NCBI GenBank assembly: GCA_964570285.1
Contig: CAZMXP010000010.1
Coordinates: forward strand, 10,512-74,511
Origin: an uncultured Planctomycetaceae bacterium
GTDB lineage: Bacteria > Planctomycetota > PLA2
DNA: 64,000 bases
Direction of reading: 5' to 3'
Shown: positions 2,720-51,572 of the stretch, piece by piece
Layout: each line of letters begins with the position of its first letter
Numbering within the stretch: position 1 is the stretch's first letter
Made by a program: the position numbers and the translations under genes
Notes under the pieces: generated by a model
What the model was told of the DNA's origin: nothing
Databases searched by the model: none
The model's input: only the letters and a program-made list of their open reading frames with translations

Positions 2720-4158
2720 CCTCGGCCGCGCCGGACTACCGCGTGCTGATCGGCATGGAGGTGCACCTGCAGCTCCGCACCGCGAGCAAGATGTTCTGCG
2801 GCTGCCCGGTCCGCTTCGGCGCGCCGCCCAACACGCTCGTCTGCCCCGTCTGCCTCGGGCTGCCCGGTTCGCTGCCGGTGCCCAACCGCGACGCGATGGT
2901 GCTCGCGCTTTCGCTCGCGACCGCCTTCGGGTGCGACCTCGCGGAGCGCACGAAGTTCGACCGCAAGAACTACTTCTACCCCGACCTGACGAAGGGCTAC
3001 CAGATCAGCCAGTACGACCTCCCGCTCGCGACCGGCGGCGGCGTCGAGATCGTCACGGAGTCGGGGGAAGGCAAGCGGATCCGCCTGCGCCGCCTCCACA
3101 TCGAGGAAGACGTCGGGAAGAGCCTCCATGACGACGGGGCGGGCCTCTCGCGCCTCGATTTCAACCGCGCGGGCACCCCGCTCGTCGAGATCGTGAGCGA
3201 GCCGGACATCGCGTCGCCGGAGGAGGCGCGCGCCTACCTGAACGCGCTGCGCGCCGTCGTGCAGTACCTCGACGTCAGCGACGGCAACATGCAGGAGGGC
3301 AACCTCCGCTGCGAGCCGAACGTCAACCTGCACATCCGGCAGGGCGGGCGCACCTTCAAGACGCCGATCATCGAGGTCAAGAACCTCAACTCCGTGCGCA
3401 ACGTCGAGCGCGCGATGCAGCAGGAGGTCGGGCGCCACCTCGAGCTCTGGGCCTCCCTCGGCGAAAGGGTGGAGGACCTGCCGCGCAGCACCCGCGGCTT
3501 CGACGACGTGCGCGACACGACCTTCGTGCTGCGCGAGAAGGAGGAGGCGCACGACTACCGCTACTTCCCCGAACCCGACATCCCCCCGATCACGCTGGGC
3601 ACGACGTGGCGCGCCGAGGCGAGCGCCCGCGTGCCGGAACTGCCCGACGCGCGGCGCCGGCGCCTTGCTTCCGCCTACGGCCTCACGGCCTACGACGCCG
3701 ACCTGCTCTGCCGCGAGCGCGCCACCGCCGACCGGTTCGAGGCGGTGGTCGCCGCGGGTGCGGCGCCCAAGCCCGCCGCCAACTGGCTCCTGGCCGGAGG
3801 GACCGACATCGGAAGGCTCTCCCCCGCCCGTCTTGCGGAGTTCGTGAACCTCGTCGAGCAGGGCAAGGTGGCGCGGCAGGCCGCCGCGCGCGACCTTCTG
3901 CCGCGCATGGCCGAGTCCGACAGGCCCGCGGCCCATCTCATCGACGAACTCGGCCTCGCGCAGGTCGAGGACGCCTCGCTGCTGCGGGAGGCGGCCCGCC
4001 GCGCGATCGCCGCGCAGCCGCAGGCGGCCCGCGACGTCCGCGACGGCAAGCAGAAGGCGCTCGGCTCCCTGATGGGCCACGTGATGCGCGAGACCGGCGG
4101 CAGAGCCGACCCGCAGGCCGTAAGATCGGTGCTTCTCGATCTGCTGAAGGAGCCCTGA
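2716..4158 (+). CDS. gatB: Aspartyl/glutamyl-tRNA amidotransferase subunit B
   Basis: MEVHLQL...KMFCGC...PVCLGLPGSLP is a GatB hallmark; 4-nt start/stop overlap with gatA. Confidence 0.9.
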   Translation: MTSAAPDYRVLIGMEVHLQLRTASKMFCGCPVRFGAPPNTLVCPVCLGLPGSLPVPNRDAMVLALSLATAFGCDLAERTKFDRKNYFYPDLTKGYQISQYDLPLATGGGVEIVTESGEGKRIRLRRLHIEEDVGKSLHDDGAGLSRLDFNRAGTPLVEIVSEPDIASPEEARAYLNALRAVVQYLDVSDGNMQEGNLRCEPNVNLHIRQGGRTFKTPIIEVKNLNSVRNVERAMQQEVGRHLELWASLGERVEDLPRSTRGFDDVRDTTFVLREKEEAHDYRYFPEPDIPPITLGTTWRAEASARVPELPDARRRRLASAYGLTAYDADLLCRERATADRFEAVVAAGAAPKPAANWLLAGGTDIGRLSPARLAEFVNLVEQGKVARQAAARDLLPRMAESDRPAAHLIDELGLAQVEDASLLREAARRAIAAQPQAARDVRDGKQKALGSLMGHVMRETGGRADPQAVRSVLLDLLKEP

Positions 4159-6736: not shown

Positions 6737-9370
6737 CTATCGAATCTGGATGCGGAGGCCCGCGTCGCCCGTCCGGACCTCTTTAATCTCCCCCTTGAGC
6801 CCCCTCTCTCTCAATTCCGCGCGGAGAGTCCAGGGCCCCGGTTCGTCGGAAGGGACCGGTACGGCAAACCGACCCTCCCGATCCGATGGCGCGGCATAGC
6901 TGACCCTGTCCCCTTCCCGGACCTGCACGGACGCCCCCGCCACGGGAGTGCCATCGGCCAGGATCACGACGCCCGAAATCGTGAGTGCTGTGCGGAGAGA
7001 GAGCGTCACCTCCTGGCCCGCAGGCAGAAGCGTGAGCGAGCGGGGCGCGACCACGTCGTCACGGCCTTGGGGCCGATGCGCCATCAGGGTGATCTCCCTC
7101 GCGTGGAGTCCGGTGAACACGGCGATGCCGTGCTCGTCGGTCAGCGTGCGCGCCCGGTCGGCGGAAACGGGGACCTGTGCCGCTGCGGTACCGTCGGGAT
7201 AGACCACCCGGACCCGCAGCGTCCGGTCCTTCTCGATCATGCGGACGCGCAACAGAACGCCCGCTGCACCGGACGCGACGCCCGCCACGCTGCCCGCATA
7301 GTCACCGCGCTCGATGGTGCGGCGCTCGGTCTCGACCCCGAAGAACTCGACGACAAAGGTCTCACCCCGGGGAACCTCCAGCGTGAAATCGCCGTCCGCG
7401 TCCGCCTGCGCGGACGCGACCTGCCGGCCGTTCTTAGTCGCGGCGACCCACGCCTCCCCCAAGGGCTGCCCGGCCTCCGCCGAGATCGTGCCGGTGATGG
7501 TCGACGCCTTCCGAAGGACGAGGCGGAACTCGTCCAAGTCGCCCTCGACGGTCACCTCCTCGCGCAGCAGGCCGCGCCCGGTTGCGAAGGGGTGCGCCGT
7601 GATTTTCGTGACCGATCCGGGGACGAAAAAGGTGACCCGTCCCTGGGCGTTCGACTGGCCATTGAAGCCGGGTGCGCCCGCCTCGACAGTAACAAAAACC
7701 GTCGGGACGGGGACACCCTCCTCGTCGACCACCGTGACCGTGAATTCCCTCCCCTCGGGTAGCACCACCTTCACATCGAGCAGGTCCGCACCCTCGGTGA
7801 CGACGAGCGGCCGATTCTCGGCTGATGCGCCCGGGCGTCGCACTTGCAGTTCGAATCGACCCGGCGAGAGGTCTGCGAAGCGGAAGCGCCCCAAGTCGTC
7901 GGTCCGCCGCGACTCGGATGCGCCGTAGAACGAATTCAGGACGGGTTCGGCGCCCCGCAGGCGACCGCGATCGCTGTTGTAGCCCGACAGGGTCACCTCG
8001 ACTCGCGTCGCGGGCGCACCGGCGCTGCTGACGACACTGCCGGCGATCAGACGGGCGGTCGGCAGGCGGACGTCGCCGAGGTCGATCACGCCGGGGCCGT
8101 TCGGATGCGGGTCGAAGTCGAGCAGGTAGCGGCCATGACCCTGCGCCATCGCGATCAACGTGTGGGGCATCTCGCGGCTCAGCCCCGAGAGCAGGAAACG
8201 GCCCTCGCCGTCCGAGGTGCTTGCCCGCGTGCAGATCCGCTGATCGCTGCCGCGAAACACGGAGCCGATCGAAGAGAGGGTCGCACCGGCCACCGGCAGT
8301 CCGGTCGCGCCGAGAAGCCGCCCCGTCACCGAATCGCCTTTGGAGAGGGCGAAGTCATGGGAGTCGCCGGCGACGAGCCATTGGGCCCTCCCGTAGCCGT
8401 CGGCTACGCAGTGGATGTCGTCGACCCCGACGCCGAGCCAGCCCGGAAGCACATTGCGCCCGCTCGCATCGCTCAAGACCGAAGGCGACATCACCCAGTT
8501 CATCCCGACGCGCGCGTTGGCAATGGCGGCACCGGTGGCTGCGTCGGTCACAACCCCCGTCAACGTCCTGCCCTCGACGAGCGTCACGAGGTGCTCGTGC
8601 TCGCCCTCCTCGGGCAGCACGACGGTCTCCCACCCGTGATAGCCGAGCGCTGCGGGACTGACATCCATCGTGTAGGCCGCGGCACCGGGAAGCGCGCCTA
8701 GCGTGCAGCGTCCCCGCTCATCGGTGACGCCGTGCAGCGTCGGGGCCTCGCCGTCGGTACGCCAGATCCGCACTTTCGTGCCCGACGCGGGAGCGCCGCG
8801 CTCGTCGCGCGTGACGACGGTGAGCCGGACTCCAGGCTCCATCTCGATGCGCACCCGCTCCCCCGCCTCACGATCCGCAAGCTCCAGCGAGGCATAGCCC
8901 TCGGCGCTGACATGCAGCGCCACCTCGGACCCCCGCCTCAGGCGCAGAGAGAAGGTGCCGTCGCGGCTGCTGACGGTGCGCGGCCCCTCGACAGTTGCGA
9001 AGTATCCGTCGTGGTTGAGCACACCTGCCCTGCGCCATGGATAGGTGAGGACTTGCAGTGCCGCGCCGGCCACGGGGGCGCCATCCTCCTTGCGCACGAC
9101 GATGCCGTGGAGGTCCAGCTCCCGGTCCACCGCCGCGAGGTCCACGGGCGGCGGCGGGACGACGCGGGAGTGGGCATCGACTGCACCATCCCTCTTGGCC
9201 GTCTCGCCGGACTGCGCATCCGACGGCGCCCCTCGGCCCCTCCGTTCCGTACGAGCCGCGGAACCCTCAGAACCTCGGCCGGTACGCCCGAAGAGATCCG
9301 AGGTCCCCACGAGCCAACCGACCAGCGCGACGGCGATGAGACCGAGGAGCCCAAGCCACCGCTTCGCCAT
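6737..9370 (-). CDS. Large secreted multi-repeat protein with carboxypeptidase-regulatory-like (CarbopepD_reg / Ig-like beta-sandwich) domains, N-terminal signal anchor
   Basis: Internal ATG (revcomp 9368-9370) gives MAKRWLGLLGLIAVALVGWLVG signal anchor; many repeats of the pattern V.G.V.D..G.P..GA.V...; the upstream 417 codons of the track ORF are antisense to the real gene at 9530-10603. Confidence 0.7.
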   Translation of the reverse strand: MAKRWLGLLGLIAVALVGWLVGTSDLFGRTGRGSEGSAARTERRGRGAPSDAQSGETAKRDGAVDAHSRVVPPPPVDLAAVDRELDLHGIVVRKEDGAPVAGAALQVLTYPWRRAGVLNHDGYFATVEGPRTVSSRDGTFSLRLRRGSEVALHVSAEGYASLELADREAGERVRIEMEPGVRLTVVTRDERGAPASGTKVRIWRTDGEAPTLHGVTDERGRCTLGALPGAAAYTMDVSPAALGYHGWETVVLPEEGEHEHLVTLVEGRTLTGVVTDAATGAAIANARVGMNWVMSPSVLSDASGRNVLPGWLGVGVDDIHCVADGYGRAQWLVAGDSHDFALSKGDSVTGRLLGATGLPVAGATLSSIGSVFRGSDQRICTRASTSDGEGRFLLSGLSREMPHTLIAMAQGHGRYLLDFDPHPNGPGVIDLGDVRLPTARLIAGSVVSSAGAPATRVEVTLSGYNSDRGRLRGAEPVLNSFYGASESRRTDDLGRFRFADLSPGRFELQVRRPGASAENRPLVVTEGADLLDVKVVLPEGREFTVTVVDEEGVPVPTVFVTVEAGAPGFNGQSNAQGRVTFFVPGSVTKITAHPFATGRGLLREEVTVEGDLDEFRLVLRKASTITGTISAEAGQPLGEAWVAATKNGRQVASAQADADGDFTLEVPRGETFVVEFFGVETERRTIERGDYAGSVAGVASGAAGVLLRVRMIEKDRTLRVRVVYPDGTAAAQVPVSADRARTLTDEHGIAVFTGLHAREITLMAHRPQGRDDVVAPRSLTLLPAGQEVTLSLRTALTISGVVILADGTPVAGASVQVREGDRVSYAAPSDREGRFAVPVPSDEPGPWTLRAELRERGLKGEIKEVRTGDAGLRIQIR

Positions 9371-9529
9371 CAGATCTCTCCTGATCACCTCGCACCCCCC
9401 GGCAGCGCCGTCCGGCCACGCTGACCCGTCCCGGAACACGCCCCCCCGGGGGCCATAGCATACGGGTTCGCCACGGTCTCCGCAGGCCCCCCCATCTCGG
9501 CGCGAGCCCCCGCTACAATCGCCGACCTC

Positions 9530-10603
9530 GTGAGCGAATTCCTCGAGTCCTTGGCCGTCGGCGAGCCGCTGTTCGAGCGCCGGAGCGATCCCGTGATCGA
9601 GCGCGAGGCGATGGCGCGCGCGGGCATGGTCTCGGAGATGCTCCACTACGTGCTGCCCAGCCGGTGGCTCGTGGAGGCGGTCACGACGCCGACCCGGCGC
9701 TCCTACGCGAGCGCGGACGAGATCAACCTCGCCGAGTTCGCGGCGTCGCAGGAGAATGCCTGCCGCCACTGCTACGGGGCGATGCGCTCGGTGCTCCGCC
9801 TGCTCGGGCACAGCGAGGCGCAGATCCTCCGGCTGGAGCGCGACCGGCAGACGATGGAGTTGGGGGCTCGGGGGCGAGGGGTCTACGACTTCGCGCGCGC
9901 GCTGGCCCGCTCGGACCCCCGCCCCGCGCGACCCGAACTGCAGGCGCTCGACCGCCTCGGCTTCTCGCGGAACGAATCGACGGAGATCGCGCTGAACGTG
10001 GCGATCGCCTGCTTCCTCAACCGCCTCGGGACCGCGCTGGCCATCCCGCCCGACGCGAATCTCGAAGCGATGCCGTCCAGGTGGATCGTGCGCCTGCTCG
10101 CCCCGCTCGTGCGCAGAAAGATGCGGGGCAGGCCGGTCCCTCCCCCCGCGGCCCCCCACCCAACTCCCGAGGTCCCGTTCGGCATGCTGATCCCGCTCCT
10201 CGGCCCCGTGCCGGGCGCGGCGAGTCTTGCTGGCACGATGGAGGCGGCCTTCCGCTCCGACGTGCTGACGCGGCGGGCGAAGACGCTCGCCTTCGCCGTC
10301 GTGGCGCGGACGATCGGCTGTGGCGTCTGCGAGGCGGAGGCGAGGCGCGCGCTCGAGGACGAGGGCATCGACGCCGCGGAGGCGGAGCGGATCCTCGCCC
10401 ATCTCGCGTCGCCAGCCCTCGATCCCGTGGAGGCGCTGCTCGTCCCCTATGCCCGCGAGACCGTGCGCTACCGGCCGGCGCAGATCCAGCAACGCACGCG
10501 CGAGTTGCTCGCCGCGCTCGGGCCCGACAGGACGCTCGAGGCCGTCGGCATCACGGCCCTCGCGAACGGGGTCGTGCGGCTCGGAATGCTCGCGGAATGC
10601 TGA
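9530..10603 (+). CDS. AhpD-like / carboxymuconolactone decarboxylase family protein, two-domain
   Basis: Two CxxC motifs in helical context (ENACRHCYGAM and TIGCGVCEAEA) typical of the AhpD/CMD fold; GTG start at 9530. Confidence 0.55.
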   Translation: MSEFLESLAVGEPLFERRSDPVIEREAMARAGMVSEMLHYVLPSRWLVEAVTTPTRRSYASADEINLAEFAASQENACRHCYGAMRSVLRLLGHSEAQILRLERDRQTMELGARGRGVYDFARALARSDPRPARPELQALDRLGFSRNESTEIALNVAIACFLNRLGTALAIPPDANLEAMPSRWIVRLLAPLVRRKMRGRPVPPPAAPHPTPEVPFGMLIPLLGPVPGAASLAGTMEAAFRSDVLTRRAKTLAFAVVARTIGCGVCEAEARRALEDEGIDAAEAERILAHLASPALDPVEALLVPYARETVRYRPAQIQQRTRELLAALGPDRTLEAVGITALANGVVRLGMLAEC

Positions 10604-11373
10604 CGTTCGCCCTCGTGGCACTCGGGGCGGCGCTTGCCGCGGCCTTAGGCGCTCTCGCGCTCCTTGAGCGATCCCGCTCCCGGTATGCGCGCGGCCTCGC
10701 GCGGGCGGCGGCGGACCTCGAGAGGCTTCAGACGGCGTTCGCCCGCTTCGCCCCGGCGGAGGTCGTCGAGCAGATCGCCGCGCGCGGGATCGCCCCCGAG
10801 GCGACGGAGCGGGAGGTGACGGTCCTCTTCGCGGACTTGAAGGGGTTCACGCCGCTTGCCGGCTCCCTCGGCCCCGAGAGCGTCGTCGATCTGCTGAACG
10901 GCTGGTTCCGCGAGATGAGCGCGGCGATCGTGGCGCACAACGGTCACGTGGCGAAGTTCCTCGGGGATGGCCTGATGGCGCTCTTCGGCGCGCTCGACCG
11001 GAACCCGTGGCAGGCGCGGGACGGGGTCGAGGCCGCGCTCGCGATGCGGGAGGCGCTTGCCCGCTACAATGAGGCGCTCCGGACGCGCGGCCTGCCGGCG
11101 CTCTCGTTCGGCGTCGGCCTCCACCGCGGCCCCGTCATCGCGGGCGTCATCGGCAGCGACGCGTGGATGGAGTACACCGTCGTCGGCGACACGGTCAATG
11201 TCGCGTCGCGGATCCAGGGGCTCACGCGGGTGCACGACACGGACATCCTCGTCAGCGAGGAGGTGCGCCTGGCCCTCGGCGACCGGTACTCGCTCCGGGC
11301 ACTCCCCCCCGCGCCGGTGCGCGGCAAGGCCGAGGCGATTCGTACCTACGCCGTCGAGCGCGCGGGGGCATAG
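10597..11373 (+). CDS. Membrane-anchored class III adenylate/guanylate cyclase
   Basis: ATG 10597 (7-nt overlap with upstream gene); N-terminal TM helix MLTFALVALGAALAAALGALALL; cyclase core FADLKGFTPLAG...GDGLMALFGA...GLHRGPVIAGVIGS. Confidence 0.8.
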   Translation: MLTFALVALGAALAAALGALALLERSRSRYARGLARAAADLERLQTAFARFAPAEVVEQIAARGIAPEATEREVTVLFADLKGFTPLAGSLGPESVVDLLNGWFREMSAAIVAHNGHVAKFLGDGLMALFGALDRNPWQARDGVEAALAMREALARYNEALRTRGLPALSFGVGLHRGPVIAGVIGSDAWMEYTVVGDTVNVASRIQGLTRVHDTDILVSEEVRLALGDRYSLRALPPAPVRGKAEAIRTYAVERAGA

Positions 11374-17399: not shown

Positions 17400-17419
17400 C
17401 GCTGTACCTCCGGGAATTG

Positions 17420-17441
17420 AAACGGGCCAGGGCGCCCGTTT
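17420..17441. promoter_or_regulatory. 8-bp-stem hairpin AAACGGGC-CAGGGC-GCCCGTTT immediately upstream of the RBS of the cytochrome c peroxidase gene (5' leader)
   Basis: Read from sequence; on the minus strand it is followed by GGAGG and the ATG at 17399. Confidence 0.3.
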
Positions 17442-17477
17442 GAATCTCCGCTAATCTAGCAGAGGATTGGGGGGGCC

Positions 17478-17606
17478 CGTCGCCCGCTGCGCGGGCTATG
17501 GGCCCTAAAGGGCCCGAGGCGGTCGGCCGCTGCGCGGGCTATGGGCCCTAAAGGGCCCGAGGCGGTCGGCCGCTGCGCGGGCTATGGGCCCTGAAGGGCG
17601 CCGGAG
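17478..17606. repeat. Tandem repeat, 43-bp unit x3 (GGTCGGCCGCTGCGCGGGCTATGGGCCCTAAAGGGCCCGAGGC), each unit containing GGGCCC-TAAA-GGGCCC hairpin
   Basis: Three near-identical head-to-tail copies read from sequence; third copy has TGAA instead of TAAA. Confidence 0.85.
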
Positions 17607-17764
17607 CAGGTCACGCGCGCACGAAACGGACGCCCTCGCGTCCCTTTGAGGTCGTCATCCTCGGTCCAGAGCGTCGCCGCGTGGGCCCGCGCGGTTGCGA
17701 GGAGGATGCCGCGCGAGCTCGGCAGGGTGCAATGGCCGCCCAAGGTCACCGGGAACTGCGCGGT

Positions 17765-18172
17765 GCGGTGGATCACCGCCTTCGTCTTGAAGGAGGAGAT
17801 GAGGAACCCAGGAACTAAGGAACCGAGGAAGAGGCGGATTCGATTATCCGAGTACCGGGATGCTCCCCTTTGCTCTCATGGATTCCTCCCTTCCTGGGTT
17901 CCTCATCAAATCCGACACCCTCGTCCCTGATCGCTCGTACGCCATGCCCGCAGAGTCCTCGCCGCTGGCGCGGATCCCGACGAGTCAGTGGATTCGAGCG
18001 GGGGGAACGAAAACCACGGAGGCACGAAGACACGATGGGGCTTCCGCGACCCGGTGCGCTCCCCGCGCGCAGGCTCGTCGCTGCCCATTCTCCGTGCCTT
18101 CCTGCCTTCGTGGTCATTGTTCTGGATGACCGGTGCAGCGGCCTGCGCTGATTTGATTGCGGCGTCAAGCCG
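17765..18172 (+). repeat. Copy 1 of a ~400-bp lower-GC repetitive element with nested inverted repeats (GGAACCCAGGAA...TTCCTGGGTTCC; CACGAAG.CACGGAG...CTCCGTGCCTTCGTG); MITE or structured-RNA-like
   Basis: About 85% identical over ~380 bp to 45163-45530; partial homologs at 21023-21640 and 28262-28452 (inverted); intergenic. Confidence 0.75.
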
Positions 18173-18434
18173 CGCTGCGGCTCAACACGACCCGTCCCGA
18201 GGCGCCAGACTGTCGGCTCGGGCAGCCCTCCTCGGCCTCGGCCGCCGCGTATGGGGCCCGTCAGGACCGCTGAGCGATTCCTGTGCGAACGACTGCGAGT
18301 CCGCAGCGGGCGCCAAGACCGGCCCAGAGGAGCGATGAGGCCGAGGCGTAGGGCACCCGCCGCCCGCTCCCCCCGGGCGTGCGCGGAGGCGGCGGGGCCC
18401 TCCTAGCGGCCCCCGCCGCCTCCGACTTAACAAG

Positions 18435-18453
18435 GCAAACGCAACGCGTTTGC
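18435..18453. terminator. Palindrome GCAAACGC-AAC-GCGTTTGC (8-bp stem, 3-nt loop) immediately 3' of the DinB-like gene; candidate terminator or operator
   Basis: Read from sequence; followed on the minus strand by CTTGTTAAG. Confidence 0.3.
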
Positions 18454-18463
18454 TTTGGTCGCC

Positions 18464-18976
18464 TTACCCCATCCCCCACAGGTTCATCGTGTTGACGGGC
18501 TTGCCCTGCAGCTTCAGGTAGTAGAAGAGCTGGGACTTGTGCGCCGCGAGGTGCTTGGCGCACTCGAGCATCTGCTGGCCCAGCGGCTTCATCGTCGGGT
18601 CCCACGGCGCGGCGACCTGCTTGGTGGCGAGGTTCTTCTCGCCCGCCTCGACGATCGTGCCGAGGGCGAGCTTCTTGTCGGCGGCGAGCGCCTTCTTCGT
18701 CTCGGCGAGGCTCGCCGTCGTCGGCAGCTTCTCGGCCGGCGGCAGCATCTCCTCCGGATTCGCGTCCGCCGGCATCCCCCAGTCCCCGGTGACAAACCCC
18801 TTGCACATCGCGCCGCACGAGGTCTCGAGGTGCTTGAGAAGCTGCCCCATCGTCATCCAGTTCGAGCCCGTCGCGGGCTTCCAGTTGAGCTTGTCCTTGT
18901 CGACCATCGCCACGAGCCCCTCCGTCGCGCGGAAGGCCGATTCGATCTCGCTCTTCAGAAGTTCGGTCCAGTTCAC
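18464..18976 (-). CDS. DinB/YfiT-like (DinB_2 four-helix-bundle) family protein
   Basis: GTG start at 18976 preceded by GGAGGA RBS (7-nt spacing); NWTELLKSEIESAFRATEGLVAMVDKDKLNWKPATGSNWMTMGQLLKHLE is typical of the DinB_2 family; the remaining ~690 codons of the track ORF are artefact. Confidence 0.6.
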   Translation of the reverse strand: MNWTELLKSEIESAFRATEGLVAMVDKDKLNWKPATGSNWMTMGQLLKHLETSCGAMCKGFVTGDWGMPADANPEEMLPPAEKLPTTASLAETKKALAADKKLALGTIVEAGEKNLATKQVAAPWDPTMKPLGQQMLECAKHLAAHKSQLFYYLKLQGKPVNTMNLWGMG

Positions 18977-21004: not shown

Positions 21005-21022
21005 TGGCGCGCCGATAGGAAG

Positions 21023-21640
21023 AGCACAGAGGCGCAGCACGGCTTGACGCCGCAACCAAATCAGCGACGGCCGAAGGCCGCGCTGCGCCTAGTGAGGAGC
21101 TGCGGGATCCGGGTGACGCGCGCGGGGCAGAGGGCTGCGTGCGTTACTCCCCCGCCGCAGAGGATGGCTGCGAAGCGGCCACAGTGGCGCGGTTCGGGGC
21201 GCCGCACGAGGGCACCACCAGAATTTGCGCAGGGAGCGCGAAGTCTGCGGGTTAGTAGTACAGAGACGCAGAGGAGGAGTGAGGCCGCGACGGGACAGCG
21301 CGGGCCGTGGGCTGGCTGGTCTGCTCGGCGGGCGAGTGTTTCGGGCAGCGACGCCCGCGAACCCCAACTCGCCTCTGTACTAAGAACGCCTGGCTTCTGC
21401 GCCGCTTGGGCGAATTCATGCCCCGGGGATCTCCACGCCGCGAACGAGAACCACGAAGTCACGAAGACACGAAGGAGCCCCCGCGAGCCCGGACGCGAGC
21501 GGCGCCGCGGTCCGGCCTTTCACGTTCTCCGTGCCTTCGTGTCTTCGTGGTGATTGCTCGACATGACGCGTGCGGCGTCTTGCCGTCGTTTGGTTGCGGC
21601 GTGGGGGCCGCGCTGCGTCTCTGTGACTCTGTGCTACTCC
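21023..21640. repeat. Composite ~620-bp member of the repetitive element family; ~25-bp terminal inverted repeats (GGCTTGACGCCGCAACCAAATCAGCGACGG ... CCGTCGTTTGGTTGCGGCGTG), internal IRs (TTAGTAGTACAGAGACGCAGAGG / CCTCTGTACTAA), 3' half homologous to copy 1
   Basis: Read from sequence; segment 21425-21560 aligns to 17995-18140 (CACGAAG / CTCCGTGCCTTCGTG module). Confidence 0.65.
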
Positions 21641-21665
21641 TGCTCGCTTCGGTCGCCGCGGGAGG

Positions 21666-23330: not shown

Positions 23331-24211
23331 CGCGACAGCCATCCGCGGGCGATCGCCGCGCGCACGATCTCGAAGAGGGGCTGATCCGCACGCACGCGCA
23401 GGAAGCCGATGCCGGTGCGTCGGCAGAAGGCCGAGAGCCCCGTCACGCGCGCCTCGCGCGCCCGATGGTAGGCGTCGACGCTCTCGCGCGTGATCTCGAG
23501 GCGCAGCGTCTCGCCGGTCTCGGAGTCGACAAGGCGGGTGCGCCCGGGGGGCGGCGGCATCAGCGCCTGCGGGTCCTCGATCAGCAGCGCGCGCACGCGG
23601 TAGCGGTGCCCTTGCAGGCGCGAGAGTGCCGCCGCGGCCCCCTTCGGATCGAAGAAGTCGCTGACGACGAAGGCGACCCCGCCGCGCGCGTGGCGCGGCA
23701 ACCGGCCCTTCAGCGCCGCGAGAAGATCCGTCGGGCCCGAGACCTCGCTGTCGATCGCCTCGAGCAGGTCGGCGCTCCGCCCCTCGGGGCCCATGGCCCG
23801 CGCCGCGGGCGTCGGGCCCCCCCCCGGGCCCCCCCCCGGGCCCCCCCCCATTCGCAGATGCTGCACGCGCTCGCGCTGCGAGAGCGCGATGGTGCCCAGC
23901 GCGGCGCAGACCTTCGCCGCCGTCTCCGCCGCGCGGCCGCGCATGCTCGCGGTCGAGTCCTGCACGAGCAGCAGGTCGATCGCCTCCTCGGCGTCGAACT
24001 CCTTCACGGCGAGCGTGTCCATGCGCGCATAGACATGCCAGTCCACCCGCCGCAGCGCGTCGCCGGGGTGGTAGGCGCGGTGCTCGCGAAAGCCGCTGCC
24101 CGGCCCGGCGCGGCGCATCGCGCGCTCGCCCTGCAACTGGCCGCGGCGCACCTTCGCGGCGAGCAGTTCCAACTGGCGCACCTGCGCCATCTCGCGCGCG
24201 GTGAGGATCAT
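23327..24211 (-). CDS. DUF58 family protein (MoxR-associated vWA-like)
   Basis: REMAQVRQLELLAAKVRRG...YHPGDALRRVDWHVYARMD...VKEFDAEE is the DUF58 signature; contains (GGGP)x3 encoded by a C/G homopolymer tract. Confidence 0.7.
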   Translation of the reverse strand: MILTAREMAQVRQLELLAAKVRRGQLQGERAMRRAGPGSGFREHRAYHPGDALRRVDWHVYARMDTLAVKEFDAEEAIDLLLVQDSTASMRGRAAETAAKVCAALGTIALSQRERVQHLRMGGGPGGGPGGGPTPAARAMGPEGRSADLLEAIDSEVSGPTDLLAALKGRLPRHARGGVAFVVSDFFDPKGAAAALSRLQGHRYRVRALLIEDPQALMPPPPGRTRLVDSETGETLRLEITRESVDAYHRAREARVTGLSAFCRRTGIGFLRVRADQPLFEIVRAAIARGWLSR

Positions 24212-27531: not shown

Positions 27532-28091
27532 GCGAGCGCGCGGAGTGGGAGCGGCAGATCGAGGAGGCGCGGCCGCGCCTCGTGCTCTGGGTGGCGGCGC
27601 GCCTCGGCACGAGGCTGCGGGCAAGGATCGAAGCGGAGGACATCGTGCAGGAGATCCTGCTGAAGGCGTTCGAGGGGCTCGCGACCTTCGAGCCGAAGCA
27701 CGAGCACTCGCTGCTCGCGTGGCTCTTCACGATCGCCGAGCACCGGATCGCCGACCTCGCCGACCACTTCGGCGCCGCCAAGCGCGACGGGGAACGCGAG
27801 CGCGAGATCCACTCGCGCATCGCCGCGTCGCAGACAAGCCCCAGCATGCGCGCGAGCCGCGAGGAGCAGAAGGAACTGCTCTGGCTCGCGATGTCGGCGC
27901 TCTCCGAGCGCCACCGCGAGATCCTCCGCCTGCGCCGCTTCGAGATGCTGTCGAACGAGGAAGCGGGCGAGCGGATGGGCATCACCGCCAAGAACGCATC
28001 CGTCCTCTACGTCCGCGCCGTCGAGGCGATGCGCAAGGTGATGACGGGGGGGCTCGGGGGGGCGGAGCGCAGCGCAGTCCCCCCCGAATGA
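27528..28091 (+). CDS. ECF (sigma-70 family group IV) RNA polymerase sigma factor; last 15 codons and stop supplied by the G7/C7 repeat module
   Basis: Region 2 (DIVQEILLKAFEGLATF) and region 4 (LSERHREILRLRRFEMLSNEEAGERMGITAKNASVLYVRA); GTG start overlapping lpxB stop. Confidence 0.8.
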   Translation: MSERAEWERQIEEARPRLVLWVAARLGTRLRARIEAEDIVQEILLKAFEGLATFEPKHEHSLLAWLFTIAEHRIADLADHFGAAKRDGEREREIHSRIAASQTSPSMRASREEQKELLWLAMSALSERHREILRLRRFEMLSNEEAGERMGITAKNASVLYVRAVEAMRKVMTGGLGGAERSAVPPE

Positions 28092-28170
28092 TCCAGGGGA
28101 TCGGGGGGGCTTGCCCCCCATAGCGCGCAGCGCGACGGGGGGCGGAGCGGAGTCCCCCCTGAGTAATCCG
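28046..28170. repeat. Two tandem copies of G7-loop-C7 module (GGGGGGGC.CGGGGGGGCGGAG[CGCAGCGCAG]TCCCCCCCGA.T.ATCC)
   Basis: Read from sequence; a third near-identical copy sits at 45078-45116 at the 3' end of an unrelated gene. Confidence 0.6.
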
Positions 28171-28261
28171 AAGGGCGAGCGGTAGGCCTTGCGCCAGTTG
28201 CGCTGACATGGAGGGTTGGCAGTACAAGCCTCGGGCGCTGCGCGCCCTCGCTATGGCCTGC

Positions 28262-28452
28262 GTCAGAACCGGATCGCGGGTAGCTGATTTGCTGAGGAAC
28301 CCAGGAAGAGAGGAGTCCATGAGTGCAGGTTGGAGCATCTCGGGACTCAGATGGATCGATTGCGCCTCCACCTTGACTCCTGGGTTCCTAGATTCCTGGG
28401 TTCCTTCTTCCAACCTCACGACGAAGGCTGTGGTCCGCCGCACCGCGCAGTC
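28262..28452 (-). repeat. Partial, inverted copy of the repetitive element family (5' GGAACCCAGGAA...TTCCTGGGTTCC module)
   Basis: Reverse complement of 28380-28450 aligns to 45161-45235 (GCGGTGGACCACCGCCTTCGTCTTG...GGAAGAAGGAACCCAGGAACTTAGGAACC). Confidence 0.6.
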
Positions 28453-28638
28453 CTCGGTGCAGTTGCATCCTGAGAAGGTTGCGCGGCAAGCTCCTGGTGC
28501 GCCCCGGAACGCACTTCGCGCCTGAATCCCGAACAACCCAGGAGAGCGGCACCCGGTGGTGGCACAGAGAGCCCGTGGCGGCCTCGTACGCGGCACGAGG
28601 GGGTCTTTAGGAAGCTCGTTCCCGGTGCGCGGCTGCGG

Positions 28639-31440: not shown

Positions 31441-33462
31441 ATGGAGTCCGACGAAGAACTGCTCGCCCGCCTCGTCGAGGAGTACCACCGGCGCTCGGCG
31501 CAGGGGGCGCGCCCGTCGCCGGAGGAGTTCCGCGGGCAGGCAGGCGCCTGCTACGAAAGGCTGCTCGAACTCCTCCGGCAGGAGGCGCTGCTCGACAGCG
31601 CCATCGAAGGGGGCACGGGGGAACGGTTCCCGCGCACCTTCGGCGAATACACGCTGCTCGAACTGCTCGGCCGCGGCGGCATCGGCAACGTCTACAAGGC
31701 GGTCCACCGCCCCCTCGCACGCACCGTCGCGCTGAAGGTCTTGCAGGGCGGGTGGGCCGACGACGCGGAACTGGTCGAGCGGTTCCAGCGCGGCGCGCGG
31801 GCGGCGGCGCAGGTCGAGCACGACCATGTCGTGCGCATCCACGATGTCGGGGTCTTCGAGGGAAGGCCCTACATCGCGATGTCGCTTGTCACGGGCAGCG
31901 ACCTGAACGTGCTGTTCAAGAAGCTGCGCGTCGCGGGTCCGGCCCCCTTCACCCCCACCCATCACGCGATTCTCGACGAAGCCAACATCCCGGGCCACGG
32001 CACCGACACCGCAGCCTTCGTGCGGCGCATCGCGGCGCTGCTCGCCGGTCCCGCCGACGCGCTCGACCTCTACCACCGGGCCGGAATCCTCCACCGCGAC
32101 GTCAAGCCCGCCAACCTGCTGCTCGACCGCGGCGGACGCCTCGTGCTCACCGACTTCGACCTTGCGCGACGCTTCGAGACGAGCGCGCAGACGGCCGGCG
32201 GCACCCTCGGCACGCCGGGGTACATGAGCCCCGAGCAGTGGGATCCGGCGGTGGCCGAGATCGATGCGCGCAGCGACGTCTACTCTCTCGGGTGCGTCCT
32301 CTTCGAGGCGCTGACGCGCCATCCGCCCTTCCACGACGCCGACGATCCGGTGCGGACGATGAAGCGGGTGCTGACGGAGTCGGCACCCGACCCGGTGCGT
32401 TTCGTGCCCGACCTCGCCGCGGATGCGCGCCGAGTCGTCGGAAAGGCGCTGGAGAGGCGCCGCGAGGATCGCTACGCGGACGCCGCGGCGTTTGCCGCGG
32501 ACCTGCGCGCGCTCGCAAGGGCGGGCTCGGTCGCGGCGCGGCCCGTCCCGCTCGCGCGGCGGCTCGCGCGGCGCGCGTGGCAGCGGCGGGCCCCGCTCGC
32601 CGCGGCGCTGCTGACCGCGCTGGTCGCGCTCCTGCTCTGGGCCTCCCGCGGCGCGCACCTGTCGATCCTGCCGTGGCCCGACGCCGACGTCTGGCTCGAC
32701 GGCGTCGCGCTCGGGCGCACGCCGCTCAAGGACCGCCGGGTCAGCGCGGGGGAGCACGACGTCGTGCTGCGCCGCACCGGCTTTCGGGAGCATCGCGTGC
32801 GCTTCCATGTCGCCGCGGGCGAGTCGCGCACCCTCGACCCGCGCCTGCCGATCCTCGACGAGAACGATCCCGCGGTGCTCGTGGCGATCTTCGAGGCGGC
32901 GGGCGTCCGCACGCTCCAGCCGCCTCCGCGAGCGACCTACCGCACCGAGCCCGCCCGTCGCGGCGCGCCCCTTCCGCTGCTGCCCCGTGGCAAGGTGCGG
33001 CGCGCCGATTGCAAGACCTTCGAGATCGAGGCTGCTGCGGTCGAGGATGCGGAGCTGGTTCTACAGGAGATCGACGGCCAGGAGGTCTGGCGCAGGCCGC
33101 TTCGCCTCGTCGCCGGCCGCAACCGCGCGGAGGGCGCGCCGGAACTGCTCGTCGGCGCGACCTACCGCTGGAGGACCGGCGGCAGCGAGTGGGTGGAATT
33201 CACCGTCGTGAAGGATCTCGACCTGACCAGCGTGATGTCGGTACGTGCGGACGGCCACAACTCGCTTGCGGACAAGCTGGAGACCCGACTGCTGCACCAG
33301 GAGGAGCTCTTCACCGCCCTGCTGGTGAAACTGAGGGGGCTCGGGGGCGGCGCGGAGACTGAGACGCAGATGCGCTGGAGCGCCGTCGACGCGCTGGGCA
33401 TCCGCAACTCGGCGGAGGCGGAGGTGATCGGCCGCGACCTGGTCGGCGATGGCGAGCGGTGA
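31441..33462 (+). CDS. Ser/Thr protein kinase (Hanks-type) with TM segment and C-terminal PEGA domain
   Basis: GxGxxG LLGRGGIGNVYKA, VAIK-like VALKVL, HRDVKPANLLL, DFDLA, GTPGYMSPEQ; TM LAAALLTALVALLLWA; PEGA-like ILPWPDADVWLDGVALGRTPL...VVLRRTGF. Confidence 0.85.
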   Translation: MESDEELLARLVEEYHRRSAQGARPSPEEFRGQAGACYERLLELLRQEALLDSAIEGGTGERFPRTFGEYTLLELLGRGGIGNVYKAVHRPLARTVALKVLQGGWADDAELVERFQRGARAAAQVEHDHVVRIHDVGVFEGRPYIAMSLVTGSDLNVLFKKLRVAGPAPFTPTHHAILDEANIPGHGTDTAAFVRRIAALLAGPADALDLYHRAGILHRDVKPANLLLDRGGRLVLTDFDLARRFETSAQTAGGTLGTPGYMSPEQWDPAVAEIDARSDVYSLGCVLFEALTRHPPFHDADDPVRTMKRVLTESAPDPVRFVPDLAADARRVVGKALERRREDRYADAAAFAADLRALARAGSVAARPVPLARRLARRAWQRRAPLAAALLTALVALLLWASRGAHLSILPWPDADVWLDGVALGRTPLKDRRVSAGEHDVVLRRTGFREHRVRFHVAAGESRTLDPRLPILDENDPAVLVAIFEAAGVRTLQPPPRATYRTEPARRGAPLPLLPRGKVRRADCKTFEIEAAAVEDAELVLQEIDGQEVWRRPLRLVAGRNRAEGAPELLVGATYRWRTGGSEWVEFTVVKDLDLTSVMSVRADGHNSLADKLETRLLHQEELFTALLVKLRGLGGGAETETQMRWSAVDALGIRNSAEAEVIGRDLVGDGER

Positions 33463-33508
33463 GGGTGGAATTTTCCCCAAGAGCGGTACTAACGAGCCTG
33501 GCTCCGCC
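33444..33508. repeat. 65-bp direct repeat copy 1 (contains the kinase stop codon and a duplicated copy of the CPBP gene 3' end)
   Basis: 64/65 identical to 34180-34244. Confidence 0.85.
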
Positions 33509-33513
33509 TGTGC

Positions 33514-34053
33514 TCAGAAGATCGCGGCCACAGGAAGTTCGAAGCCGGGCAGCAGGTCGCCTCCGCGAATGACTTCCGACTCGGCGAAGGCTACCGGCTT
33601 TCCGCCCGCGCGGTGGACAGCGACCGTCCGCGCCTGAGGATCCACCACCCAGACCTCCGCCGCCCCCGCCTCAAGCCACTCGGCGACCTTCTCACGGACG
33701 TAGCCAGGGCGGTCGTCGGGCGAGAGCACCTCGACCGCGAGATCCGGAGCGCCCGGGTAGAACCCGCGGACTGGCACGGGCGTGCGACCCGCACGGACGA
33801 ACGAGACATCCGGCGCGCGCACCGTGTCGGGGTCGTGCGAGAGGAGGAAGCCCGTCTCGGCGGCGAAGACCGTTCCGAGCTGGCGAGCGGTCACGAATCC
33901 GGTGAGTCGGTACGCGAGCATGTTGGCGACCCGGCCATGGTCGGCCCCAGCCGGGACCATCATCACGAGCTTCCCCCGGACGAGTTCGCACCGACCGATG
34001 TCCCCGGCGCGGAGCAGCGCCTCGGCGGTCGTGATTGCGGCGGCCATGGGCAT
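33514..34053 (-). CDS. Uma2-family (DUF820, PD-(D/E)xK-like) putative endonuclease
   Basis: AEALLRAGDIGRCELVRGKLVMMVPAGADHGRVANMLAYRL...DVSFV...PDLAVEVLSP is the Uma2 signature; TACAAT 5 nt upstream of the ATG, possibly leaderless. Confidence 0.7.
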   Translation of the reverse strand: MPMAAAITTAEALLRAGDIGRCELVRGKLVMMVPAGADHGRVANMLAYRLTGFVTARQLGTVFAAETGFLLSHDPDTVRAPDVSFVRAGRTPVPVRGFYPGAPDLAVEVLSPDDRPGYVREKVAEWLEAGAAEVWVVDPQARTVAVHRAGGKPVAFAESEVIRGGDLLPGFELPVAAIF

Positions 34054-34179
34054 CGGCGATTGTAGCCCATGCCCATTTGACGGGAGTGGGTGTCACGCGC
34101 CAATCGCGCCAGGAATAGCGCGAGAGGAGGAGGGAGGGGCTCAGGCCAGACTCAAGCGGCGCGGGAGCGGCAGTCTGTA

Positions 34180-34244
34180 CGGCGATGGCGAGCGGTGAGG
34201 GTGGAATATTCCCCAAGAGCGGTACTAACGAGCCTGGCTCCGCC
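34180..34244. repeat. 65-bp direct repeat copy 2 (contains the authentic 3' end and stop of the CPBP protease gene and a duplicated kinase 3' end)
   Basis: See 33444-33508. Confidence 0.85.
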
Positions 34245-44663: not shown

Positions 44664-45113
44664 ATGCGGGCCGCGGTGCCCCCCCCGGACCCCCCCCTTC
44701 GCACCCTTCTGGGGCGCGCCCTCGCGCGCCGCTGCCCGGCTTGCGCCCAAGGACGCCTCTTCCGCTCCTTCCTCCGCCTCCACCGGGCCTGCCCCGCCTG
44801 CGGATGGCTCATCGAGCGCGAACCGGGCGCGGTGACCGGCCCGATGTATGTCGTCGCGATCCTGACCCAGCTCTTCGCGGCGCTGCTGCTGGGCCTCTCG
44901 TGGCTCCTCGTGGACTGGTCGCCCGCGCTGCTCCTCGCGGTGGGTCTCCCGGTCATCGCGCTCTTCTCGCTGCTGATGCTCCCCGTCGCGAAAGGAATGT
45001 GGGTCGCTCTCGACTACATCACCGACCTGCGCACCGGCGAAGCCTCCCGCCCCGACTATGCCCGAAGAGCCTATTCCGGGGGGGCCCGGGGGGGCGAAGT
45101 CCCCCCCGAGTAA
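44664..45113 (+). CDS. DUF983 family Zn-ribbon membrane protein; C-terminal codons and stop supplied by G7/C7 module
   Basis: CPACAQGRLF...CPACGW zinc ribbon plus two TM helices; ends ...SGGARGGEVPPE*, the same C-terminus as the ECF sigma gene. Confidence 0.6.
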   Translation: MRAAVPPPDPPLRTLLGRALARRCPACAQGRLFRSFLRLHRACPACGWLIEREPGAVTGPMYVVAILTQLFAALLLGLSWLLVDWSPALLLAVGLPVIALFSLLMLPVAKGMWVALDYITDLRTGEASRPDYARRAYSGGARGGEVPPE

Positions 45114-45116
45114 TCG
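45078..45116. repeat. G7-C-C-G7-CGAAG-TC7-GAGTAATC module (third copy)
   Basis: Near-identical to 28133-28170. Confidence 0.6.
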
Positions 45117-45162
45117 ATGGCCCGGGGGGGCGTTCAGGGTGCGATGGCGCGCCGAAGGCCAC

Positions 45163-45530
45163 GCGGTGGACCACCGCCTTCGTCTTGCGCTTGGAAGAAG
45201 GAACCCAGGAACTTAGGAACCTAGGAAGAGGCGCATTCGACCCATCCGAGTCCCGGGATGCTCCCATTTCCTCTCATGGGTTCCTCCCTTCCTGGTTTCC
45301 TTATCAAATCCGATTTCCTCGGCCCTGATCGCTTGTGCTCCATGCCCGCAGAGTCCTCGCCGCCTGCGCGGATCCCGACATGTCACTGGATTCGAGCGGG
45401 GTGAACGAAAACCACGGAGGCGCGAAGGCACGAAGGAGCCTCCGCGACCCGGTGCGCGCGCTGCGCGCCGGCTCGTCGCTTCCCGGTCTCCGTGCCTTCC
45501 TGCTCTCGTGGTCCTTGCTCCACATGGACT
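45163..45530 (+). repeat. Copy 4 of the ~400-bp repetitive element (full-length homolog of 17765-18140)
   Basis: About 85% identity to copy 1 across the whole core; intergenic between the DUF983 and CBS genes. Confidence 0.75.
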
Positions 45531-45599
45531 GGACCCCTGGGCCAAGCCTCGTAACCGTGGCGCACGGGCGAGGCACGCCGGGCAGGACCGGGAGCCGGC

Positions 45600-46103
45600 C
45601 TACTTGCCGGAGAGGGGGGCGGCGTCGAGGATCGACTCGGCGATGTGGTGGTAGAGCGACGACCGGTAGACGATGCCGATCACGCGGCCGTCGCGCACCA
45701 CCGGAAGGCTCTTGACCCGGCGGCTGACGATCAGGTCCGCCGCCTCGAACAGGTCGGCGTCGGGACGCAGCGTCACCGGGTCGCGGCTCATCACGTCGCG
45801 GACGCGCACCTTCGCCGCCCACGCCGCGAGGCCCTTGAAGTCCGAGGGCTCCATCGAGGGTGCCGCCCGGTGCCCCGGCGCGGCGAGTTCGCGGACGAAG
45901 TAGGGGAAGAGGATCTCCCCGACGACATCGGACTGCGTGAGGATGCCGCTCAGCTTGCCGTCGGCGCCGAGCACGACGACGCACTTGATCCCGATCTCGT
46001 CCTCGACGAGCGGGCACTCCCGCAGCCGCTGCATCGCCGCGAGGAGCGTCGTGCCCTCCTGCACGACCTGGAATTCCGAGGTCATCACGTCGGCTACCGT
46101 CAC
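45600..46103 (-). CDS. CBS-domain pair protein
   Basis: Two CBS motifs (DVMTSEF...PLVEDE...VLGADGKLSGILTQSDV; DVMSRDPVTL...LPVVRDGRVIGIVYRSSL). Confidence 0.75.
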   Translation of the reverse strand: MTVADVMTSEFQVVQEGTTLLAAMQRLRECPLVEDEIGIKCVVVLGADGKLSGILTQSDVVGEILFPYFVRELAAPGHRAAPSMEPSDFKGLAAWAAKVRVRDVMSRDPVTLRPDADLFEAADLIVSRRVKSLPVVRDGRVIGIVYRSSLYHHIAESILDAAPLSGK

Positions 46104-46132
46104 GTGTCACCTGCCATCGCATCCATCGGCTT

Positions 46133-47665
46133 TCATCCGCGGGCCGATCCCGCGCCGGATCGCCCCGGCGACGACTCCCGCAATCCGTGGGCCGCAGCGG
46201 CCCGCGGCAGCAGCACGCGGAACGTGCTGCCCTTCCCGACCTCGCTCTCGACCTCGATCCGGCCCCCGTGCTCGCGCACGATGTCCTGCGAGATCGTCAG
46301 CCCGTACCCGGTGCCCGCCTCCCCCTTCGTCGTATAGAGGAAGTCGAAGATGCGGCCGATCGCCTCGGGCGGGATGCCGATGCCCGTGTCCCGGATCTCG
46401 ATCGACACCGTGGAATCCTGCGCGGAGACCTCCGCGAGCAGGCTCCCGCCGTCGGGCATCGCGTCCCTCGCGTTCGTGATCAGGTTGAGCAGCACCTGCG
46501 AGAGGCCCCCGGCGTCGGCGTCGAGCGTGTGGCGCCCCCGCTCCCCCTTCACCTCCATCTTGATCCCGCGCTGGTGGAGGTCGTGCCGCAGCAGCGCATG
46601 CAGCTCCCCGAGCAGCGTGATCGGGTCGACCTTGTCCTCGCGCCGCACGGTCGCCCGCGTCACCCCGCGGAGCTGGGCGATCAGCTCCCCGGTGCGCGCC
46701 AGCGCGTCCCGCATCACCGCGGCCCCGCGCCGCATCTCCTCGGCCGGGATCGTCTCGCCGCGGTCGAGGCGCTTCAGCAGCGCCTCGAGGTATTGCGCGA
46801 CGCCGTGCACCGGATTAGCGACCTCGTGCACGATGCTGCCCGCGAGCCGGCCGATCGCCGCCTGCCGCTCCTGCTCGCGCACGATCGCGTGCATGCGTGC
46901 GCGGTGGCGCATGTCCTGCATGTATCCGGTGAAGCCGACGCGCTCGCCGAGGTGGTCGAGGGTGACGACGCGTTCGTCGAACACCGGGATCAGCGTCCCG
47001 TCCTTCCCGCGCGCGAGCAGCTCGCCGCTGGCCCGGCCCTCCCGCCGGCAGAGCTCGAGCCAGTAGAGGGGGTCGTAGCCCTCGTCGAAGAGTTCCCCGA
47101 TGCCCTTCCGGCCGACGACCTCCGCCTCGCCATACCCGAGGAGCTCGCTGATGTGGCGGTTGAAGGAGGTCACGAGCCCGCGCGCGTCCAGCGTGTAGAT
47201 CCCGACCGGCACCGTCGCGTAGATCTGGCGCAGCTCCCGCGTGCGCCTGCCCACCTCGTCTTCGAGGCCGCGGTTCAACGACTCCAGCCGCTCCTGCAAC
47301 TCGCGGATGCGCAACATGGCCCGGACGCGCGCGAGCAACTCCTGGTGGGCGACGGGCTTGGTCACGTAGTCGTCGCCGCCGGCGGCGAGGCCGCGCACGA
47401 CGCTCTCGGTGTCGCGGTTGTGGGCGGTGACGAGAATGATCGGGATGCTGCGGGTCGTCTCGTCGGCGCGCAGGCGCCGGCAGACCTCGAAGCCGTCCAT
47501 GGCCGGCATCTGCACGTCGAGCAGGATGCAGTGCGGCCGCTCGCGCTGCGCGAGCGCGATCGCCTCCGCCCCGCCGGCCGCCTCGAGGACGTCGTAGCCG
47601 TCGAGGAGCAGCCGGAGCGAGTACCGGTTGTCGGCGTTGTCGTCGACGACGAGGATGCGGCTCAT
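46133..47665 (-). CDS. Hybrid sensor: N-terminal receiver (REC) - PAS - HisKA - HATPase histidine kinase
   Basis: MSRILVVDDNADN...LLDVQMPAMDG REC; PAS (VGIYTLDARGLVTSFNR); H-box HEVANPV; G-boxes DTGIGI, GTGYGL; the upstream 785 codons of the track ORF are artefact. Confidence 0.8.
   Translation of the reverse strand: MSRILVVDDNADNRYSLRLLLDGYDVLEAAGGAEAIALAQRERPHCILLDVQMPAMDGFEVCRRLRADETTRSIPIILVTAHNRDTESVVRGLAAGGDDYVTKPVAHQELLARVRAMLRIRELQERLESLNRGLEDEVGRRTRELRQIYATVPVGIYTLDARGLVTSFNRHISELLGYGEAEVVGRKGIGELFDEGYDPLYWLELCRREGRASGELLARGKDGTLIPVFDERVVTLDHLGERVGFTGYMQDMRHRARMHAIVREQERQAAIGRLAGSIVHEVANPVHGVAQYLEALLKRLDRGETIPAEEMRRGAAVMRDALARTGELIAQLRGVTRATVRREDKVDPITLLGELHALLRHDLHQRGIKMEVKGERGRHTLDADAGGLSQVLLNLITNARDAMPDGGSLLAEVSAQDSTVSIEIRDTGIGIPPEAIGRIFDFLYTTKGEAGTGYGLTISQDIVREHGGRIEVESEVGKGSTFRVLLPRAAAAHGLRESSPGRSGAGSARG

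Positions 47666-50163: not shown

Positions 50164-51572
<1,409 letters not shown>

Follow-up and report, generated by a model that had tools for sequence, protein, structure and literature searches.

Interspersed palindromic modules with tandem-octamer arms between the genes of an uncultured Planctomycetaceae bacterium

Four related repeats between genes

The window (the whole stretch of DNA analysed, 64,000 nt in length, with a GC content of 71.7%) carries four related repeats, referred to here as copies 1 to 4 (c1 to c4), all of which sit between genes. The repeats and their parts are listed below in order of position.

17585..17776, minus strand: what is left of the C-terminal part of a VapC/PIN toxin gene (phmmer), forming the left flank of copy 1 and partly present also beside module A of copy 4
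about 17765..18125, plus strand: copy 1, composite of modules A, B and C, 86% identical to copy 2 and 92% identical to its orthologue in the sister strain L110
17798..17907, plus strand: module A hairpin of copy 1, arms 17798-17829 and 17876-17907, period 8
about 17908..18004, plus strand: module B, a connector of about 100 nt between A and C, conserved in copies 1 and 2 and in L110
18005..18122, plus strand: module C hairpin of copy 1, arms 18015-18038 and 18089-18112
18139..18183, plus strand: solo arm of type D, 88.9% identical to the reverse complement of 21029-21073 and aligning with 21582-21621
21017..21641, plus strand: copy 3, a composite palindrome of about 620 bp, outer arms at about 21017-21075 and 21580-21641
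21441..21560, plus strand: module C hairpin in copy 3, arms 21441-21474 and 21527-21560, 5' arm CACGAAGT CACGAAGA CACGAAGG
28275..28459, minus strand: copy 4, module A only and inverted, arms 28295-28330 and 28370-28405, with a decayed VapC-like flank
45163..45520, plus strand: copy 2, modules A, B and C, A arms 45198-45226 and 45274-45302, C arms 45411-45435 and 45488-45512

The initial annotation of this DNA had put the identity of the first and last of these repeats at about 85% and had described both as lower in GC than their flanks; on comparison, 17765-18122 and 45163-45520 were 86.1% identical over 359 nt (E 3.6e-118), and the GC content was 0.595–0.67 across 17700-18200 against 0.70–0.77 in the flanking genes. 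Two of the sequences searched for were more frequent than expected: GGAACCCAGGAA, allowing up to 2 mismatches, occurred 14 times in the window (3.1 expected) and CACGAAGNCACGAAG, allowing up to 3 mismatches, 22 times (6.6 expected), with 0 of 100 shuffles reaching 14 in the one case and 0 of 100 reaching 22 in the other. Folding of the 408-nt stretch that begins with copy 1 was also better than that of its shuffles, the two strands being about equal in this respect (z -4.7 for the plus and z -5.8 for the minus strand).

The intergenic position given earlier for all four repeats was borne out, and the association with gene 3' ends, which had been noted for two, extends to the whole set, every copy being 3' of at least one gene. 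Copies 2 and 3 lie between convergent genes, copy 2 having the stop codon of a DUF983 gene on one side and that of a CBS gene on the other, and copies 1 and 4 are 3' of one gene and 5' of the next gene on the same strand. Partial copies had been proposed at about 21 kb and 28 kb, and here the homology is real but each shares parts only: 21442-21621 matches module C plus a 45-nt arm (73–77% identity), and 28275-28459 matches module A in reverse orientation (76–79% identity).

Hairpin modules and their octamer arms

A single element of about 400 bp in four copies, as first described, does not account for these sequences, which instead form a mosaic of independent hairpin modules whose combinations and orientations differ from copy to copy. 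The repeat is a composite of the separable palindromic modules A, B and C and of a fourth arm type, D. Module length is 110–130 nt, with the termini AACCACGG.../...CCGTGGT and GAGGAACCC.../...GGGTTCCTC; the inverted arms of the modules measure 24–36 nt and are 76–81% complementary, and the outer arms of the 620-bp composite are about 50 nt long.

Both inverted repeats named at the outset are present, one in module A and one in module C of copy 1. The arm unit of module A is GGAACCNA, repeated three to four times; the two arms of copy 1 pair over 32 nt with 81% complementarity around the core GGAACCCAGGAA/TTCCTGGGTTCC, the 5' arm consisting of the tandem octamers GGAACCCA GGAACTAA GGAACCGA GGAAG and the 3' arm of their complement. 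The hairpin of module B is weak. The arm unit of module C is CACGRAGN, repeated three times, and in copy 1 CACGGAGGCACGAAGACACGATGG (18015-18038) pairs with TCTCCGTGCCTTCCTGCCTTCGTG (18089-18112), the 5' arm reading CACGGAGG CACGAAGA CACGATGG and the outer termini AACCACGG...CGTGGTC; within the window the distance between the partner arrays of module C is 52–58 nt. Copy 3 contains module C without modules A or B, nested in the larger palindrome, the outer arms of which contain CACAGAGN units and which holds several hairpins inside (fold z -7.2). The type D arm 3' of copy 1 matches the terminal arms of this composite.

Presence, absence and orientation among close relatives

Relatives were reached through 90% protein clusters and compared in three tiers: a sister strain (L110), with genes 90–93% identical at the nucleotide level; a single contig of a slightly more distant genome (L107 and L111), with genes 81–94% identical; and genus-level relatives (L114 and L115), covering 43 kb together. 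By its flanking proteins the organism belongs among MAGs labelled Planctomycetota: PurF was 78% identical to that of a Planctomycetota-labelled MAG, and a trans-sulfuration enzyme 66%.

An orthologue of copy 1 is present in the sister strain (283 of 308 positions identical, 92%), where module C is interrupted by a rearrangement through which a PEP-CTERM gene was introduced, and the same locus in L107 is a 148-bp spacer without the element. The break in the sister strain (L110 2547-3402) consists of a duplicated 85-nt piece of the 3' end of a DinB_2 gene, followed by the PEP-CTERM-domain gene. At the locus of copy 2, the same DUF983 and CBS genes are separated in the genus-level relative L115 by a spacer of 59 nt without the element, and L111 lacks the entire 6.5-kb block in which copy 2 lies. 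At the locus of copy 3, the sister strain has the outer arm directly after the same gene and then the reverse complement of module C, so that the composite is inverted relative to the window, and L107 has three other genes. The orthologue of copy 4 in L111 (2118-2244) is about 93% identical and shows one paired change, from GGAGTC/GACTCC to GGAATC/GATTCC, by which a stem pair is preserved. The 43 kb of L114 and L115 contain neither a copy nor an octamer array, and these particular copies are therefore young and clade-restricted.

Close relatives thus differ in both the presence and the orientation of the repeats, the particular copies are confined to one species-level clade, and the spacers that carry them are hot spots of rearrangement, a point to be kept in mind in assembly and in comparing strains. 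Between the window and the sister strain, intergenic DNA including the element is 92% identical, against 79% at fourfold-degenerate sites (n=785); conservation above the level of fourfold sites could mean functional constraint, but the contigs diverge very unevenly along their length (79–98%), and we therefore attach little weight to it.

The MITE-like character proposed for the repeat holds in part. Inverted arms, together with presence, absence and inversion at the same loci in close relatives, speak for it, whereas a target-site duplication, a clean empty site and a transposase with matching ends did not come to light. Flanks were inspected at the four copies and their orthologues, and no direct repeat was seen at the boundaries, which are themselves uncertain because no clean empty site was found among the relatives compared, where the spacers differ wholesale. 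The window ORFs scanned include no transposase, in agreement with the initial annotation, and neither a transposase nor a RAYT gene lies beside any array in the window or at the other loci examined. Likewise, no autonomous insertion sequence with the same ends was found among the scanned window ORFs or between distant partner arrays in the IMG/VR loci.

Octamer arrays in other genomes and in phage contigs

A scan of a genome collection with the pattern GGAACCNAGGAANNNAGGAACC, which is too generic to single out homologues of the element, brought up octamer arrays at more than 104 loci, spread over many phyla, with no homology to the element beyond the arrays themselves at any of them. Arrays of (GGAACCNA)n in hairpin configuration were present at 24 of the 104 loci among the matches listed. 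These arrays have a polarity: those of the GGAACCGA form, mostly from Thermoanaerobaculia MAGs, have the inverted partner upstream in 20 cases and downstream in 0, and those of the GGAACCCA form (L017, L038 and L063, which are Planctomycetota MAGs, and L096) have it downstream in 4 and upstream in 1, the polarity of module A being the same as that of the latter group.

The module C unit was searched for among viral contigs. Three tandem copies of CACGRAGN were found in at least 80 stretches of IMG/VR, whereas two composition-matched permuted controls gave 12 each, and the matches of the controls are partly rotations of the real CACGRAGN array. For the 102 CACGRAGN arrays among the IMG/VR matches listed, an inverted partner lay within 600 nt downstream in 44 and upstream in 1, and the outer ends of the arrays are conserved ((T)TCACCACGGAG or AACCACGRAG), matching the module C termini AACCACGG...CGTGGT. 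The loops of these hairpins range from 20 to 520 nt, and nested cases exist. The array type to which the arms of module C belong is widespread, its polarity being fixed and its outer ends conserved.

Across 17 distinct CACGRAG hairpins, the spacer base N agreed between the arms at 12 of 34 positions, where about 13 would be expected by chance, and, read along the CACGRAG strand of either arm, was a purine in 29 of 34; since N is mostly a purine and agrees between arms at chance level only, the constraint at this position is on the motif and not on pairing. The DNA between distant partner arrays (L118, L157) encodes phage structural proteins and not a transposase, and in two related phage contigs one and the same spacer is occupied by different array types. 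A metagenome scan with the module C pattern yielded two analogous soil contigs only (L105, L106) and no true copies, and BLAST against plasmids and cultured phages gave no match.

Two further observations concern individual array loci. An IMG/VR contig with three CACGGAG hairpins (L127) contains an Acido-Lenti-1 RNA at 3218-3263 (RF01687, 54 bits), which points to an Acidobacteria-type host for its arrays. In Streptosporangium (L011 7875-7990) and Kitasatospora (L042 2838-2860), (GGAACCAA)n lies directly 5' of start codons on the sense strand and gives repeated Shine-Dalgarno-like AGGA motifs.

Comparison with known repeat families

The literature searched for the array sequences contained no description of them except in the genome paper of Geobacter metallireducens (Aklujkar et al. 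2009, PMC2700814). Two classes of paired sites are reported there. Class 1 comprises 24 pairs of four tandem GTTGCTYN octamers on opposite strands, which are the insertion sites of an IS110-family element, with ISGme8 (IS110 family) or ISGme9 (IS481 family) at a fixed distance; class 2 comprises 21 pairs, each site having three tandem TCTCCGTS[Y] octamers and the two members of a pair lying on opposite strands at a variable spacing, 3'/3' or 3'/5' of genes (PMC2700814). The authors proposed that IHF/HU binds to these sites, an interpretation that stands as a proposal only (PMC2700814).

The class 2 unit, compared by its published consensus, is the reverse complement of the module C unit CACGGAGN. 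Three or more tandem octamers of the CACGGAGN/TCTCCGTS[Y] type are present in the module C arms of copies 1, 2 and 3, which also have the inverted partner, the variable distance, the intergenic position and the location 3' of a gene that characterise the Geobacter pairs. The resemblance accordingly covers intergenic pairs of three to four tandem octamers on opposite strands at variable distance, a 3'/3' or 3'/5' position relative to genes, multiple copies and lineage restriction. The differences are that the Geobacter sites belong to another phylum, that the A-B-C composite was not described there, and that the sites are described in the supplement of the genome paper only, as IHF/HU sites. 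The arms of the modules are not arbitrary palindromes, since their 8-base units recur with unchanged polarity and outer ends in distant bacteria and also in contigs of phages. G. metallireducens, as a cultured carrier, would allow the question of how such arrays are made, moved or read to be tested.

IS110-family elements target REP sequences, which in this respect resemble the Geobacter class 1 arrays, both being targets of the same family. BOX elements of Streptococcus pneumoniae are modular, with boxA, boxB and boxC in varied combinations as for the modules here, and the ERIC/IRU repeats of enterobacteria are imperfect palindromes of about 120 nt in which internal insertions can occur; both are unrelated to the present repeat in sequence and in host phylum, and neither has tandem-octamer arms. 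The repeats share with the RAYT-mobilised REP/BIME/REPIN sequences a palindromic and intergenic nature, a position at gene 3' ends, mosaics in both orientations and variation between strains. REP sequences are, however, 20–40 nt long with a GTAG or CGTC tag (PMC3733652), whereas the present modules measure 110–130 nt, have tandem-octamer arms and no GTAG or CGTC tag, and had no RAYT gene beside them at the loci examined. Bacterial MITEs such as Correia/NEMIS and Nezha are similar in being short, non-coding, multi-copy and intergenic, with inverted arms, insertion polymorphism and nesting; unlike them, the repeats described here have arms that are internally repetitive, and neither a target-site duplication nor a parent insertion sequence with the same ends was found.

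Interpretation of the repeats

We lean towards regarding the repeats as interspersed non-coding palindromic DNA of the REP/BIME–MITE kind, selfish in type, mosaic in structure and specific to the lineage. The building block is the hairpin-forming module of 110–130 nt, its arms being inverted runs of three to four tandem octanucleotides; the unit is GGAACCNA for module A and CACGRAGN for module C, whereas the outer arms of the 620-bp composite are built of CACAGAGN. Modules adjoin or nest, and the A-B-C composite of about 360 nt has itself been duplicated to give copies 1 and 2. The modules may spread as DNA with the help of an enzyme encoded elsewhere, recombination between the long inverted arms could flip or rearrange them, and once placed they are probably passive stem-loops at transcript 3' ends. 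On such a scheme, modules would accumulate 3' of genes and form composites there, and their gain, loss and inversion would proceed over the time in which strains diverge.

To call the repeat a single novel MITE of 400 bp or a family of small RNAs is to claim too much. It is a fairly ordinary genome feature, of modest practical consequence for this genome, and the part worth following is the recurrence of octamer arrays across phyla and in phage contigs. Octamer-armed hairpins (CACRRAGN, GGAACCNA and others) may, tentatively, constitute one cross-phylum interspersed class with fixed polarity and conserved outer ends, either made or moved by some machinery or recognised by a conserved host factor. 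Such a class, which we put forward as a possibility rather than as the expected outcome, would be common to Planctomycetota-like, Acidobacteriota-type, Desulfobacterota and Myxococcota genomes and to phage contigs, and the element in the window would then be a composite of two of its types.

A role as RNA is unlikely, although it could coexist with the selfish-DNA reading. The modules would in that case be functional RNA stem-loops (terminators, 3'-end stabilisers or RNase III-type processing sites) or independent small RNAs. The position of all four copies 3' of a gene, two of them between convergent genes, and the folding in excess of shuffles are what such a role would give, and the plus strand of module C shows G-U pairs against A-C mismatches at about 13 to 3 over three copies; the compensatory pair in copy 4 also fits, as does, with the little weight already assigned to it, the conservation of the element above fourfold-degenerate sites (92% against 79%). 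Against this, both strands fold about equally well, no T-tract terminator or sigma-70-like promoter fits the modules, and separate G7/C7 hairpins already stand right after the stop codons beside copies 2 and 4. Rfam gave 0 matches in the window at the gathering threshold and 0 in 17400-18470 at E<=1, and the arrays in 12 other loci were also unmatched. Genus-level relatives manage with 59-nt spacers, and the agreement of the spacer base between the arms of the 17 CACGRAG hairpins is that of chance. The structured small-RNA family that had been offered as one of the best explanations therefore finds little support, the lack of an Rfam match and of a promoter-like site, the similar folding of the strands and the genus-level relatives without copies all counting against it.

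Less probable still is that the octamers are double-stranded DNA binding sites for a host protein, such as a nucleoid-associated protein or global regulator, with the inversion reflecting protein geometry and not a hairpin. The preference for a purine at N (29 of 34) without covariation between the arms, which is a constraint on the motif, agrees with this idea, as does the recurrence of the same octamers in unrelated lineages, and the Geobacter sites were so interpreted by their original authors (PMC2700814). Nevertheless, there is no known cognate protein, IHF/HU being a proposal only, the 8-bp period mismatches the helical repeat of DNA, and arrays are also found in the spacers of phage structural genes. 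Since close relatives are without arrays at the same loci, moreover, there is no sign of a conserved regulatory role with respect to the flanking genes. Interspersed palindromic DNA of the selfish type remains the reading to which we incline.

Coding status and the VapC-like flank

The small ORFs inside the repeats had been judged probably non-coding from the start, and the substitution pattern agrees with that judgement. Copies 1 and 2 differ by 52 substitutions, which are distributed evenly over codon positions in all six frames (20/14/18, 13/17/20 and 17/20/14), stop codons occur within 17765-18125 in every frame except one, and the longest ORF over the element, of 117 aa, had no relative among 5.8 billion proteins. 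A small minus-strand ORF with a Shine-Dalgarno sequence in the loop of module A was considered and set aside, as it is frameshifted in copy 1 and, by inspection, the differences between copies are almost all non-synonymous. Small ORFs called inside the repeats should be left out of the gene annotation.

The flank to the left of copy 1 is a different matter, being genic in origin. Its phmmer matches end in LATARAHGATLWTQDADF...GV.F, with a weak PIN_2 match (E 0.24), and the remnant is more than 95% identical to the L110 copy, with a 1-nt indel near its end. Homology between the flanks of copies 1 and 4 extends to 17747 by BLAST and to about 17700 by MAFFT, and since copy 4 holds a decayed VapC-like flank, a segment larger than module A was copied at least once.

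That the copies align because a protein-coding gene, such as a vapBC toxin-antitoxin cassette, left decayed paralogous fragments behind is very improbable: the VapC/PIN remnant beside copy 1 and its decayed piece in copy 4 would suit such an origin, but copy 2 lacks the VapC-like flank, the longest ORF has no homologue in the protein search above, the arms are tandem octamers also found elsewhere as stand-alone hairpins, and the idea is already largely refuted by the codon-position pattern of the substitutions, with no synonymous bias in any frame of 17765-18125. Decayed-gene origin applies to the VapC flank only.

Other features of the window

Two blocks of the window are absent from the L107/L111 contig. 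The first, of 3.9 kb (6781-10695), encodes a large CarboxypepD_reg-repeat protein, and the second, of 6.5 kb (44671-51202), comprises the DUF983 gene, copy 2, the CBS-domain gene, a long minus-strand ORF and most of a sigma-54 activator gene. The counterpart of the long minus-strand ORF in L115 is a Response_reg/PAS/HATPase_c protein.

Runs of G7...C7 hairpins (e.g. CGGGGGGGCGAAGTCCCCCCCGAGTAATC) lie right after stop codons at 28045-28175, by copy 4, and at 45070-45135, by copy 2, and are probably the real terminators of the upstream genes.

A putative endonuclease gene of the Uma2 family (33514-34092, minus strand; PF05685, E 1.7e-34) is contained in an insertion of about 670 nt within 33439-34244. 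The insertion is flanked by 70-nt direct repeats (33439-33508 and 34175-34244) that are 96% identical, and L111 has a single copy of the repeat and no gene at this site.

Further repeats of other kinds are also present. After the first gene of the window lies another palindromic intergenic repeat (756-915), composed of GGCCAGGAACCCGTCGGGGTAGCGGCT and two inverted partners. A 43-nt tandem repeat is present three times at 17479-17607, each unit forming a GGGCCC-TAAA-GGGCCC hairpin, where the sister strain has one unit, and a further 43-nt unit lies on the other strand at 23779-23823. In L118 and L153, two unrelated phage contigs, hairpins with the same CTAAAG loop adjoin CACRRAG arrays.
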